From: Meyerozyma guilliermondii
Taxonomy: Eukaryota
Assembly: GCA_051546255.1 (NCBI GenBank)
Contig: CP128815.1
Coordinates: forward strand, 930,001-994,000
DNA length: 64,000 nucleotides
Direction: 5' to 3'
The first letter of the stretch is position 1, and each line of letters starts with the position of its first letter. Positions 32,533 through 39,199 of the stretch are shown here, piece by piece. The notes under the pieces were generated by a model. It worked only from the letters and a program-made list of their open reading frames with translations. It was not told the origin of the DNA and searched no databases. A program made the translations under genes and the position numbers.

Positions 32533-33009
32533 CTATAAATACTTTCGTGCGAGCGACTTCAACCTCATATCAAAGTCTGGTGAAGTTATGGCATCGTTGA
32601 CGGAATAGAACGGATTTAGAAGGCACTTTGTATATAAATCGTAAGCCTCGGAGAAAAATTGTTTCATCGAATTGTCGTCGTTTTTACTACTTGGGAACGG
32701 CCCAGTATTTCCATTGGCATCGAAACAGAGAACAAATTTAATGTTTCCTTGAGTGATGAATGCATTGACCAATAGGCCATAAAACAGGTCGATTTTCCCC
32801 AAATAAAACTGGTTCAGAGTCCATTGAGAATCTTCAATGAGATCAAGTGACGAATGAGAAATGAACGGAAGAATTTCTTTTACACTTGCAGAAAACTGTG
32901 ACACTCCAGGTACCACCTGTGAGCTGGGCGCACCCTTGAAAGACGAAAACTCGAGCTCATACACCGGGTTATCTCGCGTACCAATAATGGCAAAGTAGTA
33001 CGATGACAT
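32533..33009 (-). CDS. TRS20: TRAPP subunit Trs20 (sedlin family)
   Basis: YYFAIIGTRDNPVYELEF, PFI.HSSLD, YTKCLLNPFY, ITSPDFD...LARKYL; start MSSYYF (ATG 33009). Confidence 0.93.
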   Translation of the reverse strand: MSSYYFAIIGTRDNPVYELEFSSFKGAPSSQVVPGVSQFSASVKEILPFISHSSLDLIEDSQWTLNQFYLGKIDLFYGLLVNAFITQGNIKFVLCFDANGNTGPFPSSKNDDNSMKQFFSEAYDLYTKCLLNPFYSVNDAITSPDFDMRLKSLARKYL

Positions 33010-33165: not shown

Positions 33166-34443
33166 ATGTCGCTCCGGCCCAGCCATTCGTTTTATCTACC
33201 GAGGGCGCGTCCAAGGTCGCAACCAATAGATTTTGACAAACCAAATTTCATTTACTCCTCGGATATCGGTGAAATCGTTCAGCTGTTGTCATCCCGCTAT
33301 GCATTAATAGGCGGCTATAAAAAGGACGTGGTAGACCTTACGGACTATGTCGATGAGCTCACCGAGATACACATAAATATTGAACTTAATCTGCTTTTGG
33401 TGCGCAACAAACGTCTTCGAGCATCTGATCTTTTAAAGGAGAATCTCATCTATTTGGCAAGAACCGGCAAGAAGAACCGCAATTACACCAAGGTACCACT
33501 CGACCGCTTGTATATCCAGCCCCAAATGTTGGACGAAAATGATATATTCGTTGTTTCCATGTCTCTCAAGATCCTCGACTTCATAGTACGACGTCACAAC
33601 GACGGAGTGCTGATAACACTTGACTTTTTCAAAGACGAAAACTACGGTATTCTTGTCTTTTGCGACCACACGTTGATTTCCCAACTCGAAAATTATATTT
33701 CTATCGTGTTTAACAGATGCCTAACGTCAAACAAGCCATTGGAGCCTGACGACACCCCCATTCGCCATATGGTGGTAATCGACCAGTTGGAAGACGAATC
33801 GTCAATCCTCCATGACCACTCCCTTACTGACTCAACCCTTCAAACTAATGATTCCATAGACCTCGATAAATCGTTCCAATACGATACCGAACATGTTGTC
33901 GACGATGACTTCGAAACATCATCGTTCGACGATATCGACGACGCCATCATGATGGATGGTGCCACCCGATCCAATAGTCGAGACGACCAGCATACCCATA
34001 ATCTCCATACGCGACTATCACCACGTTTGAATACCATCGAAGAATGCGACAAAAGTGATAGTTTTGTTAGCGATGTGAACAACTTGAGACATAACGAAAG
34101 TGACGAGAAATCCCAGATACCACCCTCTTCCCCAAAATCCCCGGAAGCTGAAGGTCCGTTGACCAGAAAACTGTCAGTGACGTCTTATGCTTCTCCAAAG
34201 AAGAATGATAATCTCTCACGCAAAACGTCCACTGCATCATTCTCGATGATTGACTATCAGGATCAGGATTTAGACTTTGCATTCAAGGACAAATCCAACT
34301 CTGTACCCATGTACATCAAGGACAATAAGAAGTTCAAATTCATCAAGATTGGCAAGGTGCAAAAGTTTGTCAATTTGTTTGAGGAAAAAGCCAGTGTGGA
34401 TAGCCAACCATCCTCGCGATGTTCGAGCCCACTTCGACGTTAA
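33166..34443 (+). CDS. Uncharacterised protein (425 aa)
   Basis: Long ORF: globular-looking N-half, acidic/Ser-rich linker, short C-terminal motif KFKFIKIGKVQKFVNLFEEK. Family not recognised. Confidence 0.8.
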   Translation: MSLRPSHSFYLPRARPRSQPIDFDKPNFIYSSDIGEIVQLLSSRYALIGGYKKDVVDLTDYVDELTEIHINIELNLLLVRNKRLRASDLLKENLIYLARTGKKNRNYTKVPLDRLYIQPQMLDENDIFVVSMSLKILDFIVRRHNDGVLITLDFFKDENYGILVFCDHTLISQLENYISIVFNRCLTSNKPLEPDDTPIRHMVVIDQLEDESSILHDHSLTDSTLQTNDSIDLDKSFQYDTEHVVDDDFETSSFDDIDDAIMMDGATRSNSRDDQHTHNLHTRLSPRLNTIEECDKSDSFVSDVNNLRHNESDEKSQIPPSSPKSPEAEGPLTRKLSVTSYASPKKNDNLSRKTSTASFSMIDYQDQDLDFAFKDKSNSVPMYIKDNKKFKFIKIGKVQKFVNLFEEKASVDSQPSSRCSSPLRR

Positions 34444-34913: not shown

Positions 34914-34920
34914 TGACTCA
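34914..34920 (+). promoter_or_regulatory. Gcn4 response element TGACTCA
   Basis: Perfect 7-mer 35 nt upstream of the DAHP-synthase-like ORF. Confidence 0.65.
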
Positions 34921-34955: not shown

Positions 34956-36107
34956 ATGAGTGAGATATCCATTATAGACCTCGCTTCTAGGCACGCTATC
35001 AAGCTGCTTAGTTTAGATGACGAAAAGCGAAAACCTTCGGAAAATCAAAACGAACATGTCAACTCGTCCGCTTGGAAGTTTGATTCAGCCGGCGAATCTA
35101 CCATTGGTTCGGGTCTCAATTTGAAGGAACGGGGATACTTTGCCATTCCCCAGCCTGAAATTATTCAAAACTATTTGGTTCCTCTTCTGCCGTCACTTCA
35201 AGCAAGAATTCTCAAAAATCGTCAAGATATTACCGATATTTTGCAGTCAAAACCAGGAAAAAGGTCCGGTTTTTTGGTGGTTGTGGGTCCTTCTCATCTT
35301 CAAGGTATAGAGCAAGCCGAAAGCTTGCGAGATTGGGTGTCCTCCATCCAAGATTTCCCTAATTTACTTGTGAGCGTAAGAACGAACTTGAGTAAACCTC
35401 GACTTGTTCTGTTGACAGACGACAAACAGTCACTCATGCCTTACGAGATTGAATTTGGCTTACCCAGGCTTCGTTCTCTCTTGCTTTCCATTGCCAAAGA
35501 TTGCCCTTTGGTGGGAGATATTACCAACACGATCACACCTCAATACGTTTCCGATTTGTACTCGATGGGAATTGTTGGTTCTGACGTTGTTGAGTCTCAG
35601 CTCCATCGTGAGCTTGCCTCAGGAGTTTCATATCCAGTTGGTTTCAGTACAACAACCGAAGAGCCAGTTTTGAACCCAGTAATGTTCAATCACCGCTTGT
35701 CTTCGGCATTGGATGCCATGTTTGCATCTGCTCAACCTCATAGATTTCTCTCTGTGACGAAGCTTGGCACCGTGGCAGTTGTGGGAACAGAAGGAAACTC
35801 CGACTCGTTTGTGGTGCTTCCACTCTCTTCCATGCCCTCAGAGGACGAAGTTGGCTCGAAAATAAAAGCCATCTACGATTATCCAAAAATTGGCACCGAT
35901 TCCCCTCGTGTGATGTTGGATGTTGGCAAGCTTGGTGACTCCAATTATGAGGAAGTTCTCAGTTTGGTCAAACGTACCATCAACGGCCCAGCTGGACACA
36001 AAGTCATGGGTGTTACAATTGATAGTGGAGACAGCTATGGTCAGGGAAACAAGCAAGTATTGTATGCTGAAAAAATGTTGCACGAAATCAACTCGATTCT
36101 TTCATGA
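34956..36107 (+). CDS. Class I DAHP synthase (Aro3/Aro4)-like protein with degenerate active site
   Basis: Family motifs LVVVGP, KPR, TITPQY.SDL, ESQLHRELASG.SYPVGF, PH.FLSVTK.G...T.GN, MGV.I.S retained; catalytic motifs altered (see findings). Confidence 0.85.
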   Translation: MSEISIIDLASRHAIKLLSLDDEKRKPSENQNEHVNSSAWKFDSAGESTIGSGLNLKERGYFAIPQPEIIQNYLVPLLPSLQARILKNRQDITDILQSKPGKRSGFLVVVGPSHLQGIEQAESLRDWVSSIQDFPNLLVSVRTNLSKPRLVLLTDDKQSLMPYEIEFGLPRLRSLLLSIAKDCPLVGDITNTITPQYVSDLYSMGIVGSDVVESQLHRELASGVSYPVGFSTTTEEPVLNPVMFNHRLSSALDAMFASAQPHRFLSVTKLGTVAVVGTEGNSDSFVVLPLSSMPSEDEVGSKIKAIYDYPKIGTDSPRVMLDVGKLGDSNYEEVLSLVKRTINGPAGHKVMGVTIDSGDSYGQGNKQVLYAEKMLHEINSILS

Positions 36108-36113
36108 CTATTC

Positions 36114-38048
36114 CTATATAAATATCCTAATGATTCTCCATATCACCCTAATAATATATAGAAGGCATCGGAAAACATTGGCAATCACCCATATTATCCG
36201 CAAGGAAATGACAATGCAGTTCTCCAAAATAAGGTACAATATCTGCTTATTCCCACTATCACTCATGTTCATATACTCGTTATCCTTCAAAGCTCCGGCT
36301 ATCATACCTCCAAAAAAAGAGTTATTTAACCGGTCGAGCTTCTCATTGACTTTCCGAAGCTCGTGAGAAATTGAAGTGTTCACCTCACCAATCAGACGAT
36401 CACTGCTACTTAAAAGATTGTCAATTCGAACCGAATAATTTTCATTGATTTGGTGAATAACAGACTTGATTTCGTCGTTAAATCCGTTGTACAACATCTC
36501 ATACGCGGGTAATATGTTTTCATGTATCTCGAAGGTAGACTCGTTAAGCCTTACGAGGTCCACTTCCACAATCTCTTGGATTATACTTGTGAGTTTGTTC
36601 ACTAGATCAGGGTACAGATTGGTCATGTAGTATAGTTTGAGTTCAATAACAGCCTGGAGGTATGAAAATTGTGAGCGAGTAATGCAAATATCCTTGTCGC
36701 ATGCTTGCAATTGCTCGACTGAAAGCTGAGTAGTTTCTTGGTCGTTATCCGAATCCTGGGGCAGTTCATCGGTATTAACTTGTACCCTCAGCATCGATTT
36801 GAATGGTACTTTTTTGACTTCATTTTCCAGTTCGATGTATATCTCTGGTGGAATCATTTTGTAGTTTGGGCTTGAATCCAAGGGATCCACATTATCTTGT
36901 TCATTTGACGGCGGGGACACAGGTTTGAAAAACTGCTTACTCAAATCTTCATGAGTCCCCGTTGGTTCCTCTTCCAAGTCTTCCACGTCAGATTCCAGCT
37001 CTGAAGTTGAAGGTGATGATCCCAAGTATAATTTTCTTGCTCCACGTTTTACTCTTTTTTTGACATGATGTCGGCGACGATTAGGAGATCTAGCTCTCGA
37101 GATCTTTATGAGGAACTTGCCGTCATCTTCGTCAGTGATAGAGGTATTCAAAGACAGACTTTTGAGGTCTTTCGACGAGTCTGAGATGTCATCAGCAAAT
37201 AGCTTTTCGTGCATTCGCTTTCGAATATTATGACCATGCATATGGATTTCTAGGGACGACTCGTTCGATGTGGGTCTCTTGGGAAACCATAATTGGCCCT
37301 TTGGGTTCTTAATTTCATGCCAGTGGTCTTGTCGCCAGGGAGTATCATCAAGAAGTTCGTTGAGGTCAATGCCCCAAAGCATTCTCCAGTTCTTTCGTGA
37401 GTCGTTGTGGGAGCTAAATGCATTACATGGTAAAGGAAGAAGCCTTATGGTTAATTGGCGAGGGTACTCTTTGTACTTGGCCCTGATCTTTCTGTTCCTT
37501 ATGATCTGAAGAGGATTGTATAGCCCTTCCACTCCCGGGTGTGATATTGATTCAGGAGACTGAGACCACTCGTACACACGGTGGATATACAAATACTTGA
37601 GTCCCAACATGGTTCTTACCTTGTCTGCTCTAGCCAATGTACTGCTCGAAGCAGCTATAGAAGTATTCTTGCGGTCTTCATTTGGAGGTTGTACCAAATC
37701 GTTAGCCTGTACCACTTTCTTCGTGTCCAATAGAATAGAAGCAAGTTGGGATGCTTGTTTTACTTCTACTTCTTGTGGTGCTTTGTCGTCGCTTCTTGCC
37801 TTTCTACTGGGCTTGGGGACATCAAAGTTAAGCCAGTCATTACTCACAGCGAACTTCTTTGTTGCTGAATCTGACAGAATCGGTCGCTTGGAGCTCTTCT
37901 TTCCTTTGTGGCCGTCTTTTGGCTTATTTCGCTTGGTTTCAGCTTCTCCGTGATCATTCTTGACTTCTCCACTTGATAACCGAAGCGGGATTAAAGGCGA
38001 TTTAGGAGATACTGGAGTATTCTCCTGAGCAGCCTGCGACGGTGACAT
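36114..38048 (-). CDS. MTC4: Maintenance of telomere capping protein Mtc4
   Basis: HPGVEGLYNPLQIIRNRKIR motif, C-terminal coiled coil and hydrophobic tail; synteny with TRS20/SRB6/DUT1. Start set at MSPSQ (ATG 38048). Confidence 0.8.
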   Translation of the reverse strand: MSPSQAAQENTPVSPKSPLIPLRLSSGEVKNDHGEAETKRNKPKDGHKGKKSSKRPILSDSATKKFAVSNDWLNFDVPKPSRKARSDDKAPQEVEVKQASQLASILLDTKKVVQANDLVQPPNEDRKNTSIAASSSTLARADKVRTMLGLKYLYIHRVYEWSQSPESISHPGVEGLYNPLQIIRNRKIRAKYKEYPRQLTIRLLPLPCNAFSSHNDSRKNWRMLWGIDLNELLDDTPWRQDHWHEIKNPKGQLWFPKRPTSNESSLEIHMHGHNIRKRMHEKLFADDISDSSKDLKSLSLNTSITDEDDGKFLIKISRARSPNRRRHHVKKRVKRGARKLYLGSSPSTSELESDVEDLEEEPTGTHEDLSKQFFKPVSPPSNEQDNVDPLDSSPNYKMIPPEIYIELENEVKKVPFKSMLRVQVNTDELPQDSDNDQETTQLSVEQLQACDKDICITRSQFSYLQAVIELKLYYMTNLYPDLVNKLTSIIQEIVEVDLVRLNESTFEIHENILPAYEMLYNGFNDEIKSVIHQINENYSVRIDNLLSSSDRLIGEVNTSISHELRKVNEKLDRLNNSFFGGMIAGALKDNEYMNMSDSGNKQILYLILENCIVISLRIIWVIANVFRCLLYIIRVIWRIIRIFI

Positions 38049-38236
38049 GTATAGCGCCGTGTTGTGGGCTCTTTTCGAGGGACGAACGAGCTTTTTTTGT
38101 GGAATACGTATAAGTCTGAAACTATAAAGGGTACTGCGGATCGTGTAAAATGTATAGGTGCAGTGGGCGCGGGTGGGGAAATCATGAACCAAAAATAGTG
38201 GCACCTTGAGAAGCACCACCATAGTTTTTCACCATA

Positions 38237-39199
38237 ATGCCAATTCCCTACATCAAGTCCAAGGATGATTTGGACTTGTACATATCCCAGAATGATTATG
38301 TGATGATCAATTTCACCGCGTCATGGTGTGGTCCGTGCAAAGCAGTGGCACCTATTTTGGAACAATTATACAGCGATCCAGAACAACGGTATAATATGAT
38401 AGAGGTGGTTAAGGTTGATTTGGATTCTCAGCAGGAGGTGTGTCGTCGGTATGAAGTCACCAGCGTGCCTACGTTTGTTTTTATTGAAAAGGGTAAGGAA
38501 ACGAGTCGAACAGTGGGAGGAAATATTCCTGAAATCAAACAGAAACTCGATGCCTTGCGGGAGAAAGCTCCTGAGGGATTAAAGAGGAAGGAGAGAGGAA
38601 CTCCCGTAAAGATTGCAGACGAATTGAAGAAATATATCAGCGGCAATTACGAGATTCTAAATTCTACGGTTCATACTGGAGGCTTTGAAGCACTCAATGC
38701 CATCAGCTTATACGCCAACGGAGACTTGAGAGTTACCATCAAGCAGAGTACCAAGAAAATGGGAATTATATCCGATGCCGATGCTCAATTGTTACTCCAT
38801 GTGCCCTTGATGAACATTTCAAAAGTATATTCGATATTGTTGAAACTCAAAAAGCCCGAATACAAGCAGGAATACGTTCTTGATGAAGAAGATTACTCCC
38901 AGGAGACCCAGTTCCCCTCGGTGGTGAAAGTATGGGCAAATCACACCAGTCTCATATCCTTTGACGACGCCGCAAGCGACAATAATCCAGGACACATTGA
39001 GAAAATCGGCGAACCGGACGAAAATGGCTGGTACGAGTGTCGCTTGAAGTTTGTCCGGTTTCAAAAGACCCAGTCTCTTACGATCTTTGTCGATGGAGAT
39101 GACGAAGACTTGCATACATTGATAGATGAAATTGTCATTGTGGGATTGTCGGGAGAAGCTAAGGAGCAGCCAACGCTTCTGGCTCTAGAAGAGGATTAG
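38237..39199 (+). CDS. Thioredoxin-like protein with C-terminal PITH domain (TXNL1/Txl1-like)
   Basis: FTASWCGPCK active site; PITH-like SDADAQLLLHVP, LKFVRFQ..QSLTIFV. Confidence 0.9.
   Translation: MPIPYIKSKDDLDLYISQNDYVMINFTASWCGPCKAVAPILEQLYSDPEQRYNMIEVVKVDLDSQQEVCRRYEVTSVPTFVFIEKGKETSRTVGGNIPEIKQKLDALREKAPEGLKRKERGTPVKIADELKKYISGNYEILNSTVHTGGFEALNAISLYANGDLRVTIKQSTKKMGIISDADAQLLLHVPLMNISKVYSILLKLKKPEYKQEYVLDEEDYSQETQFPSVVKVWANHTSLISFDDAASDNNPGHIEKIGEPDENGWYECRLKFVRFQKTQSLTIFVDGDDEDLHTLIDEIVIVGLSGEAKEQPTLLALEED

Follow-up and report, generated by a model that had tools for sequence, protein, structure and literature searches.

We identified in Meyerozyma guilliermondii an intact gene for a catalytically degenerate class I-alpha DAHP synthase paralogue (34956..36107, + strand). 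Residue patterns across the family to which it belongs indicate that the paralogue is, very probably, conserved under selection and devoid of DAHP synthase activity. The catalytic residues have been lost and a Phe-type inhibitor pocket has been kept, and thus its role is probably to bind a ligand rather than to form a product. For the explanation as a whole, an old and conserved family of pseudo-DAHP-synthases that would be ligand-binding rather than biosynthetic, we judge the balance to be slightly favorable. Aromatic amino acid synthesis is controlled at DAHP synthase, which is also a standard target when yeast metabolism is engineered; if the paralogue is inactive, DAHP synthase annotations, and the models built on them, overcount isoenzymes. 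Positions refer to the window, the whole 64-kb stretch of DNA analyzed, and all features described lie on its + strand.

The Gene, Its Domain and Its Predicted Fold

The reading frame is uninterrupted for 383 aa under codon table 12, with the stop codon included in the coordinates and three CTG codons read as Ser. The protein matches PF00793 (DAHP_synth_1) with 53.6 bits, the cut-off being 25.5, and E 2e-14, and the Pfam search returned no second family. Among solved structures it matched 21 distinct DAHP synthase sequences, the best being 6u8j_A (1.5e-38) and 7ykc_A, which is Saccharomyces cerevisiae Aro3 (6.3e-38). The preliminary description of the gene as an open, 383-aa DAHP synthase homologue therefore stands. 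The AlphaFold model (pLDDT 75, pTM 0.74) contains all eight barrel strands and the b6a/b6b hairpin, and its order of strands and helices is that of a (beta/alpha)8 barrel with an N-terminal extension. The top Foldseek matches of the model are, without exception, class I-alpha DAHP synthases, with E-values from 1.7e-21 to 2e-18 and TM values, on the query, of 0.59-0.64, and a search of the ESM Atlas recovered DAHP synthase clusters only. By tblastn, this is the only DAHP synthase homologue in the window.

The N-terminal residues 1-63 (34956..35144) are predicted to be disordered (pLDDT <50), and within them W40 shows at least 90% conservation across the family, being nearly invariant among 34 relatives. 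Alignment and the predicted interface delimit an N-terminal arm at residues 52-67 (SGLNLKERGYFAIPQP; 35109..35156), in which S52, G53, G60 and P67 are at least 90% conserved and residues 60-67 fall within the predicted dimer interface. In canonical enzymes, according to PMC4735112 and PMC10349828, the N-terminal arm covers the inhibitor site of the neighboring subunit; on the alignment, residues 52-67 are the counterpart of that arm. Upstream of the gene, 36 bp from the ATG, lies a TGACTCA sequence (34914..34920), by its consensus a candidate Gcn4-type element. The window contains 13 matches to this motif against 13.7 expected, and since there is no enrichment we regard the element as a lead only.

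Loss of Catalytic Residues

We mapped AroG numbering through an alignment to E. coli aroG and counted residues in 61 family members and in 80 bacterial and fungal canonical enzymes; membership is doubtful for four low-scoring sequences among the 61 (P0141, P0178, P0197, and P0209). The metal ligands are AroG C61, H268, E302 and D326, and the PEP/E4P contacts are R92, K97, P98, R99, T100, A164, R165, K186 and R234; these roles, and the list of pocket residues, derive from the AroG and Aro4 structures. Every motif replacement listed in the preliminary description was recovered in the alignment.

All four metal ligands are affected. GPSH (G111, P112, S113, H114; 35286..35297) replaces GPCS, with loss of the ligand Cys, which is present in 80/80 canonical enzymes and in none of the 61 family members. 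In DVGK (D322, V323, G324, K325; 35919..35930), which replaces DCSH, the ligand His has become Lys; no member has His at this position, where K (31 of 61) and R (9) are found, and the preceding residue is G324 in 55/61 compared with Ser in 80/80 canonical sequences. IDSGDSY (residues 355-361, beginning I355, D356, S357; 36018..36038) carries Asp for the ligand Glu and is a conserved motif specific to the family (D356 in 47, S357 in 57, G358 in 59 and Y361 in 53 of 61). Downstream of it the SITD loop with its Asp ligand is absent. The ligand positions in this copy are thus S113, K325, D356 and, where Asp is expected, K366, and the canonical residue is kept across the family in 0/61 (C61), 0/61 (H268), 4/61 (E302) and 3/61 (D326), compared with 75-80 of the 80 canonical enzymes.

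The substrate contacts follow a similar pattern. RTNLSKPRLV (142-151; 35379..35408) retains R142, the equivalent of R92, and the KPR of K147, P148, R149, L150 and V151, but the TTVGWKG loop that continues it in canonical enzymes is gone, and the GWKG columns are mainly gaps or other residues throughout the family. R142 is kept in 52/61 members, and N144 is specific to the family (55/61, vs. Tyr in 79/80 canonical sequences). GSDV (G208, S209, D210, V211; 35577..35588) replaces GART, and its PEP-binding Arg remains in 4/61 members vs. 80/80. VLPLS (V287, L288, P289, L290, S291; 35814..35828) replaces ILRGG, again at the cost of a PEP-binding Arg found in 80/80 canonical enzymes; the commonest residues at this R234 position are Q (23), P (14), E (7) and S (3). 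At the K186 position, GFSTT (G229, F230, S231, T232, T233) stands for GFKNG, and Lys, found here in 80/80 canonical enzymes, does not rank among the family's four commonest residues. In this copy T100, A164, R165, K186 and R234 have accordingly become L150, S209, D210, S231 and P289, and only R92, K97, P98 and R99 keep their identity (R142, K147, P148, R149).

The motifs KPR[TS], GWKG, [FY]KNG, LRGG, D[CA]SH and S[IV]TD are absent from 34/34 of the closest relatives, and so their loss is not a matter of chance. Of 99 columns conserved in the canonical enzymes the family keeps 33, clustered in residues 188-288 of this protein. Identity to canonical fungal DAHP synthases is 32% (P0035, P0036) and 28% (P0041). 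The paralogue shares the fold and domain layout of Aro3 (PDB 7YKC, EC 2.5.1.54), but it lacks the metal-site Cys/His/Glu/Asp, R165, K186, R234 and the GWKG loop, and has N144, G324, IDSGD.Y and, in longer members, W.YGTT as features of its own family. Homology to an enzyme is combined here with loss of essential catalytic residues, one of the marks of a pseudoenzyme, and we infer that the paralogue would be unable to make DAHP. Family members are named DAHP synthase or hypothetical in databases, and the first of these names, together with the four contacts kept in this copy, could be taken to mean that the protein still functions as a DAHP synthase by means of other residues. We rejected this very improbable reading on the family-wide pattern of loss, because the replaced features are 94-100% invariant in the 80 canonical enzymes and class I-alpha enzymes require metal.

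Distribution and Origin of the Family

More than 30 named yeast species, from five orders and two yeast classes, have an intact orthologue, with the reading frame open in each, and the preliminary description's alternative of a gene without orthologues did not materialize. Named members belong to the Serinales, Pichiales, Alaninales, Phaffomycetales and Ascoidea, and this third gene is present in several production and model yeasts, among them Komagataella phaffii, Ogataea polymorpha, Scheffersomyces stipitis and Debaryomyces hansenii. The Candida albicans/Lodderomyces clade, the Metschnikowiaceae and the Saccharomycetaceae yielded no named member, in a word-indexed search that missed known members of its own query alignment. 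A protein search at E <= 2.5e-44 found 33 relatives. Among 1.84 billion representatives, a profile search found 1,611 matches, and in those with the highest scores the catalytic motifs are missing, apart from P0128, which has the full set, and P0131, which has two; in a second profile search, 45 proteins scored at least 344 bits, followed by a gap down to 210 bits. The one locus returned by a metagenome scan was rejected as a relative, its match covering 52 residues at 42% identity.

This copy has 13 close variants, among which the start and the length of the protein are conserved. Most orthologues have variable, disordered N- and C-terminal extensions, with a W.YGTT motif in the longer members, and in most the b8-a8 loop carries large, variable acidic inserts. 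In 10 species a canonical Aro3 (73-82% identity to the query Aro3) is encoded alongside the family member, which shows that the family is not the sole Phe-type DAHP synthase (ARO3 orthologue) there; relative to Aro3, the paralogue is an extra gene in the species checked. K. phaffii and O. parapolymorpha have both ARO3 and ARO4, which PMC10349828 reports to have shown the expected behavior when assayed on plates in yeast. In agreement with the preliminary description, our literature search, which covered identifiers and accessions as well as text, led to engineering papers and unrelated ones, and within its range no account of a catalytically dead paralogue of DAHP synthase, or of any named orthologue, came up.

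In the best tree, of 63 rows, the family is monophyletic (SH-aLRT 100) and lies within the yeast Aro3 clade (99), as a distinct group whose stem measures 3.62 changes per column. Monophyly on so long a stem implies that the catalytic losses are ancient. The AU test leaves a sister relation to Aro4 standing (p 0.207, lnL difference 10.6), and an origin from ARO3 is thus favored rather than established. The sequence evidence suggests that a feedback-regulated class I-alpha DAHP synthase, most likely of the Phe-inhibited ARO3 lineage, was duplicated in budding yeasts and gave rise to the family.

Family members evolve at a median of 6.7 times the rate of Aro3 (45 same-species pairs), and every copy seen is open. 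This fast rate and the lost catalytic residues are what one might expect of a decaying duplicate, a young pseudogene whose open frame is accidental. However, the same losses and the same pocket recur, in frames that are open, across two yeast classes and more than 30 named species, the losses are ancient, constraint is specific to certain sites, and start and length are maintained among the close variants. A decaying duplicate is therefore scarcely credible, and we rejected it on the family-wide pattern. The open frames and the site-specific conservation also suggest that purifying selection may maintain the family.

Retention of the Feedback-Inhibitor Pocket

The canonical inhibitor pocket is built from two subunits, as stated in PMC4735112 and PMC10349828, and the latter names alpha-3, alpha-4 and b6a/b6b as its elements in Aro3, with Q159, K222, S219 and D154 among its residues. 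At the sequence level, this pocket is retained in the paralogue. The alpha-3 wall, DITNTITPQYVSD (188-200; 35517..35555), supplies T192, P195, Q196 and S199. The alpha-4 wall, within ESQLHRELASGVSYPVGFSTT (213-233; 35592..35654), supplies L220, G223, V224 and S225 and is followed by the GFSTT segment from which the catalytic Lys has been lost; E213, Q215, H217, R218, S222, G223 and S225 are at least 90% conserved in the family. The b6a/b6b hairpin, HRFLSVTKLGTVAVVGTEGN (262-281; 35739..35798), supplies F264, S266, K269 and V276. The TPQY (194-197), RELASGVS (218-225) and HRFLSVTK (262-269) blocks singled out in the preliminary description lie in these three elements.

Nine AroG pocket positions are identical in the paralogue and widely kept in the family: P150 in 58, Q151 in 59, L175 in 53, G178 in 58, S180 in 55, F209 in 60, S211 in 56, K214 in 59 and V221 in 48 of the 61 members, the last four being the hairpin residues. 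Q159, S219 and K222 of Aro3 are likewise the same (Q196, S266, K269). S266 of FLSVTK aligns with AroG S211 and Aro3 S219, a Phe-type marker, as had been claimed for this Ser.

Across the family, the 12 pocket positions have a mean entropy of 0.79 bits, compared with 2.07 for 13 active-site positions and 1.94 for the rest (n = 61), which makes the pocket the best-conserved part of the protein (permutation p < 5e-5). The canonical enzymes show the opposite order, with 0.02 bits for the active site, 1.10 for the pocket and 1.61 for the rest (n = 80). The selective loss of catalysis proposed in the preliminary description, with the pocket spared, thus extends to the 61-member family, the loss being centered on metal, PEP and E4P residues; a pocket no better conserved than the barrel, the outcome set against this proposal, was not what we found. 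Residues of the predicted dimer interface that lie outside the pocket are less conserved than the pocket (1.61 bits, p 0.002), although pocket and interface overlap, and part of the pocket conservation may for this reason serve dimerization.

Two differences from AroG concern ligand binding. At the position of AroG D146 and Aro3 D154 this copy has N191, where the family has D in 51 and N in 7 of 61 members, Asn being found in Meyerozyma-type copies, Ogataea and C. arabinofermentans; the AroG D6/D7 N-terminal cap residues are also lost, in a region where the alignment is uncertain. In Aro3, changing D154 from Asp to Asn raises the Kd for Phe tenfold, according to PMC10349828. A simple Phe-pocket account is thus weakened for this copy by N191 and the loss of the acidic N-terminal cap. 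We give even chances to a pocket that still binds an aromatic amino acid or a close analogue.

Polar residues kept on the old active-site face, together with R142, K147, P148 and R149 in this copy, leave room for a different chemistry. The paralogue might be a neofunctionalized enzyme with a metal-independent site of N144, K/R325, D356, S357, D359 and Y361 plus R142 and D322, and through the old pocket an aromatic amino acid would then still control it allosterically. Changes of chemistry are frequent among TIM barrels, and the old active-site face is indeed constrained, as seen from the counts above for N144, R142, G324, D356, S357, G358 and Y361 and from D322, kept in 51 of 61. However, the 13 former catalytic positions are on average as variable as the rest of the protein, K/R325 is found in only 40/61 members, and the former substrate-contact loops vary in length and sequence, as do the acidic inserts of the b8-a8 loop. 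The conserved residues could equally be packing substitutes for the lost metal site, and PF00793 is the only Pfam family matched. We consider a new enzymatic activity unlikely.

Predicted Dimer and Possible Function

A homodimer model of the paralogue scored 0.77, compared with 0.00 for the best of 3 controls, with contact agreement of at least 61% between runs and partner pLDDT of at least 83. Of microbial proteins, this mark was reached by 21/30 that had been solved as two copies of one chain and by 0/23 solved as single chains; in eukaryotes, the same mark was reached by 17/29 pairs and 0/30 single chains, but by only 1/7 without an older solved relative. DAHP synthase dimers have already been solved, and the model may thus pass through its likeness to them. 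The predicted interface includes residues 190-196, 210-218 and 260-277 (hairpin contacts 260-268 and 271-277), with the b6a/b6b hairpin at its core. The interface is of the tight-dimer type of AroG, and from the model we infer that the paralogue may still form a DAHP-synthase-type tight dimer.

In the mechanism that we propose, a feedback-regulated DAHP synthase gene, most likely of the ARO3 lineage, would have been duplicated in budding yeasts. The sequences show that the four metal ligands and most PEP/E4P contacts have since been replaced in essentially all members, and that the eight-strand barrel is retained together with the b6a/b6b hairpin and the N-terminal arm. DAHP formation would have been lost and the tight dimer kept, so that phenylalanine or a similar small ligand could bind in the pocket at the dimer interface. 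The product would be a ligand-binding regulator or sensor, whose output might pass through the remodeled barrel face or the disordered N- and C-terminal extensions. A regulatory or sensor role of some kind is a tentative reading, to which we give somewhat less than an even chance; the aromatic amino acid sensor, or partner of Aro3, Aro4 or Aro7, put forward in the preliminary description would be such a role. Its narrower form, a dedicated receptor for phenylalanine or an aromatic metabolite, derived in budding yeasts outside the Saccharomycetaceae from a gutted ARO3 copy in which the old feedback site would be the sole working part conserved, is possible but rather unlikely. Such a receptor would link aromatic amino acid levels to regulation via mixed dimers with Aro3 or Aro4 or via disordered tails.

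The paralogue could alternatively serve as a regulatory subunit that heterodimerizes with Aro3 or Aro4, the resulting hybrid inhibitor sites tuning feedback or stability. The predicted interface blocks are those of the canonical tight dimer and are nearly identical to Aro3, the canonical pocket spans two subunits (PMC4735112; PMC10349828), and the species concerned keep Aro3, two of them also Aro4. Prozyme-type dead paralogues elsewhere offer a precedent. Nevertheless, beyond the pocket the conservation of the interface is only moderate, sequence change in the family is 6.7 times faster than in Aro3, and the literature searched did not contain a third yeast DAHP synthase subunit. This arrangement seems to us distinctly improbable.

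If the paralogue binds phenylalanine, it would be an unrecognized sensor or regulator of the pathway, and a clean natural case of an allosteric site that has outlived the active site it once controlled. If the receptor reading were true, the family would include the first pseudoenzyme of the shikimate pathway and would be a eukaryotic counterpart of HisZ-type dead-paralogue regulators.

Comparison With Dead Paralogues of Other Enzymes

Enzyme paralogues that have turned into regulators are known from HisZ, a HisRS paralogue involved in the histidine control of ATP-PRT, from the AdoMetDC and DHS prozymes of trypanosomatids and from plant PDX1.2. The concept is the same in all of them, a duplicated enzyme in which catalysis is lost, a ligand or subunit interface is kept and selection continues; none is homologous to the yeast paralogue. 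The element retained here differs in that it is the enzyme's own allosteric site and not its active site, a site that corresponds to the one in AroG, the Phe-sensitive DAHP synthase of E. coli (Phe complex 1KFL).

Catalytic Motifs and Family Membership

The DAHP-synthase-like gene at 34956..36107 (+) is an uninterrupted open reading frame of 383 aa under the CUG-Ser code (translation table 12), in which three CTG codons are translated as Ser, and is the sole DAHP synthase homolog within the window. Its product matches PF00793 (DAHP_synth_1; E = 2e-14, 53.6 bits against a cut-off of 25.5) and 21 distinct DAHP synthase sequences of solved structure (top match 6u8j_A, 1.5e-38; S. cerevisiae Aro3, 7ykc_A, 6.3e-38). 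For numbering, the aroG gene of the E. coli K-12 record was fetched, translated and added to a 141-sequence alignment. Aligned in this way, every catalytic substitution first noted from the sequence is present: canonical GPCS is GPSH (residues 111-114), KPRTTVGWKG is KPRLV (147-151) with GWKG missing, GART is GSDV (208-211), GFKNG is GFSTT (229-233), ILRGG is VLPLS (287-291), D.SH is DVGK (322-325), IES is IDS (355-357), and SITD is absent. The blocks TPQY, RELASGVS, and HRFLSVTK, described as preserved, are intact, and the original observation on this gene is confirmed.

A search of 5.8 billion proteins with the window protein returned 106 matches at E <= 1e-5, the first 33 of which (E <= 2.5e-44) form a distinct group, canonical (catalytically complete) DAHP synthases beginning only at about 1e-33. 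This group includes a Meyerozyma sp. JA9 protein 93% identical to the window protein, together with proteins of Scheffersomyces, Yamadazyma, Candida jaroonii, C. anglica, Komagataella phaffii, and Pachysolen. None of the 34 proteins (33 closest relatives plus the window protein) carries KPR[TS], GWKG, [FY]KNG, LRGG, D[CA]SH, or S[IV]TD. A profile built from these 34 proteins (alignment A2) gave 1611 matches among 1.84 billion representatives, and the top-scoring ones lack the catalytic motifs, except for two database proteins, P0128 (full motif set) and P0131 (two motifs). In P0128 (799 aa) the DAHP synthase part occupies residues 508-745, and with its complete motifs the protein looks like a fused canonical enzyme; P0131 (730 aa) keeps KPR and GWKG, the other motifs being missing. 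In a second profile search, 45 proteins scored at least 344 bits and the next score dropped to 210 bits. The only locus from a metagenome scan was rejected as spurious because its match was short (52 residues, 42% identity) and other queries gave no DAHP synthase signal there.

Cluster look-ups added further members under the source names Babjeviella inositovora, Candida arabinofermentans, C. boidinii, four Ogataea species (including O. parapolymorpha W1QEA4), Wickerhamomyces ciferrii, W. anomalus, Cyberlindnera fabianii, Ascoidea rubescens, Suhomyces, two Spathaspora species, Diutina catenulata, Debaryomyces hansenii (DEHA2D14894p), D. tyrocola, C. zeylanoides, Millerozyma farinosa, C. subhashii, two more Scheffersomyces species, and three Komagataella species (GS115: C4R0S9). 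By NCBI taxonomy these belong to Serinales, Pichiales, and Alaninales (Pichiomycetes) and to Phaffomycetales (Saccharomycetes), with A. rubescens as an additional lineage (the order Ascoideales exists there; the lineage of the genus itself was not returned). No named member was seen in Saccharomycetaceae, the C. albicans/Lodderomyces clade, or Metschnikowiaceae by an indexed search that also missed known members, and absence is not implied. In databases the family's proteins are entered as DAHP synthase, aldolase, or hypothetical protein. Judged from these matches, the window protein is a member of a family and not an accident.

With a canonical yeast enzyme as query, the best 120 matches listed were all Aro3-type (Phe-inhibited), and among them were the Aro3 proteins of ten species in which a family member is present as well (S. 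coipomensis, Y. tenuis, Suhomyces, O. parapolymorpha, C. arabinofermentans, Ascoidea, Diutina, Pachysolen, C. boidinii, and W. ciferrii). When KpARO3, KpARO4, OpARO3, and OpARO4 were assayed on yeast plates, they proved sensitive to Phe or Tyr as expected, and the available part of that article held no mention that we found of the third gene of K. phaffii or O. parapolymorpha, the family member (PMC10349828). In the species checked, the family gene is, by these comparisons, an extra gene alongside real DAHP synthases.

Conservation of the Former Active Site and the Allosteric Pocket

We sorted 247 proteins into 61 family members (at most one of seven catalytic motifs, at least 330 aa, PQ[YF] or HRE motif present) and 80 canonical enzymes (at least six of seven motifs, 330-420 aa), the other 106 being excluded as fragments or intermediates. 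Four low-scoring proteins among the 61 (P0141, P0178, P0197, and P0209) may not be true members, and their inclusion could do no more than dilute the signal. The canonical set has 99 columns with at least 90% conservation, and at 33 of these at least 70% of the family retains the canonical residue; the kept columns group in residues 188-288 of the window protein, and the lost ones are catalytic-face loops. With residue roles as known from the AroG and Aro4 structures, the metal ligands C61, H268, E302, and D326 of AroG are kept in 0, 0, 4, and 3 of the 61 family members, respectively (Lys in 31 and Arg in 9 at H268; Asp in 47 at E302). Among the PEP contacts, R165 is kept in 4/61, K186 and R234 are replaced, and R92 is kept in 52/61; set beside these losses, it is highly improbable that the family protein is still a DAHP synthase. 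The feedback-inhibitor pocket retains P150 (58/61), Q151 (59/61), L175 (53/61), G178 (58/61), S180 (55/61), F209 (60/61), S211 (56/61), K214 (59/61), and V221 (48/61). For Aro3, the available part of PMC10349828 gives Q159 and K222 as the residues that bind Phe and S219 as the mark of a Phe-type enzyme, in a pocket bounded by alpha-3, alpha-4, b6a/b6b, and the partner's N-terminus; the three residues are Q196, K269, and S266 in the window protein.

Mean column entropy in the family is 2.07 bits at the former active site (13 positions), 0.79 at the pocket (12), and 1.94 over the rest (275), versus 0.02, 1.10, and 1.61 bits in the canonical set, and none of 20,000 randomly drawn 12-position sets matched the family pocket in conservation. 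This per-site comparison, likewise proposed beforehand, indicates that constraint in the family has left the active site and now lies on the regulatory site.

Residues 50-383, modeled as a homodimer, scored 0.77 versus 0.00 for the best control out of 3, with at least 61% of contacts agreeing between runs and a partner pLDDT of at least 83. This mark was reached by 21/30 microbial proteins solved as same-chain pairs and 0/23 solved as single chains, and on eukaryotes by 17/29 pairs and 0/30 single chains, but by only 1/7 with no older solved relative; because DAHP synthase dimers are already solved, the pass may reflect likeness. The predicted interface (residues 60-67, 146-165, 190-196, 210-218, 240-268, and 271-277) overlaps the conserved blocks, as expected since the tight dimer of DAHP synthase carries the allosteric machinery (PMC4735112, available part). 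The 51 interface residues outside the pocket average 1.61 bits and the remaining 246 average 2.04; the pocket is exceptional even within the interface-plus-pocket pool (p = 0.002), and its seven residues outside the interface average 0.92 bits, so dimerization alone does not account for pocket conservation. A role as regulatory subunit in a heterodimer with Aro3 or Aro4 seems unlikely for the family protein.

Origin, Tempo, and Putative Function

In a 63-row tree (IQ-TREE quick search, LG+C20) of hand-chosen sequences (23 family, 18 yeast Aro3, 7 Gly-type, 9 other fungal, 6 bacterial or metagenomic), the family was recovered as monophyletic (SH-aLRT 100), its stem measuring 3.62 changes per column. 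It fell within the clade containing yeast Aro3 (99), separate from the ascomycete Gly-type (Aro4-like) clade and in agreement with its Ser marker; placement inside Aro3 was a polytomy with long branches flagged. An AU test did not reject the alternative in which the family groups with the Aro4-like clade (lnL difference 10.6, p = 0.207), so derivation from ARO3 is favored, not proven. The ratio of patristic distances in the family to those of Aro3 has a median of 6.7 (range 3.8 to 11.5, 45 same-species pairs), pointing to evolution that is fast yet site-selective. All copies seen, from two yeast classes, have an open frame, a pattern that speaks for purifying selection over a long time; a decaying duplicate, whatever the rate of change, is hardly credible beside these frames. 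We consider it very probable that the family is a conserved, selected paralog without DAHP synthase activity.

On the old active-site face, N144 and G324 (each in 55/61) stand in place of an invariant Tyr and an invariant Ser, and D356 (47/61), S357 (57), G358 (59), Y361 (53), R142 (52), and D322 (51) are also conserved; this face is not neutral everywhere. The conservation could reflect repacking of the emptied metal site, of which Lys or Arg at the His position next to Asp at the Glu position is suggestive, or a new binding or catalytic site; a new enzyme activity in the remodeled barrel seems rather improbable.

The best reading of the family, which we put slightly above an even chance, is a ligand-binding regulatory pseudoenzyme. 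A duplicated ARO3-type protein, non-catalytic and dimeric, would bind phenylalanine or a related ligand in its retained allosteric pocket and would act as a regulator or sensor. Continued binding of an aromatic amino acid or analog in the pocket is about as likely as not, and the regulatory or sensor role is somewhat less likely than not. Dead paralogs that keep a regulatory function are already known (HisZ, prozymes, PDX1.2), and the yeast family may be a likewise case. In the openly accessible articles searched, supplementary tables aside, we found no published description of such a protein or of the named orthologs, in line with the preliminary description. What appears new is an unrecognized family of pseudoenzymes related to the enzyme at the entry to the shikimate pathway; several industrial yeasts have it, and it is directly testable.

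Features of the Meyerozyma-Type Copy and Its Neighborhood

Most orthologs are 450-625 aa long and carry two inserts, one following beta-1 and a long acidic one ahead of the last helix (b8-a8 loop); Meyerozyma-type proteins are a minimal form, with a short N-terminus and neither insert. A W.YGTT motif preceding the N-terminal arm is also conserved in most orthologs, and of this motif the window protein (residues 36-60) keeps only the Trp (W40). The AlphaFold model of the window protein (pLDDT 75) has a disordered first 63 residues and all eight strands plus the hairpin, and Foldseek matches it only to DAHP synthases. S78, encoded by CTG, is Ser or Thr in most relatives, consistent with the Ser reading. 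The window copy, unlike most of the family, keeps the equivalents of AroG R92, K97, P98, and R99. At the position of Aro3 D154 (AroG D146) it carries Asn, as do 7/61 members overall (four Meyerozyma-type proteins including the window copy, Ogataea, C. arabinofermentans, and one further protein). In Aro3, changing D154 to Asn gives a tenfold higher Kd for Phe and relieves inhibition (PMC10349828, available part); by analogy, ligand affinity or coupling may differ in the window copy.

A TGACTCA at 34914..34920 (+) lies 36 bp upstream of the ATG. This matches the consensus of a Gcn4-type element and would be in keeping with general amino acid control, under which ARO3 and ARO4 also fall; the window shows no enrichment of the motif (13 found versus 13.7 expected). 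A 702-aa frame (36114..38222, -; table 12) is convergent with the gene, 6 bp separating both stop codons, and a 425-aa frame (33166..34443, +; table 12) lies on the other flank; neither has a Pfam match at E <= 0.001. Beyond them are ordinary neighbors, a thioredoxin and PITH domain protein (38237..39199, +; PF00085, PF06201) and a Sedlin-family TRAPP subunit (32533..33009, -; PF04628).
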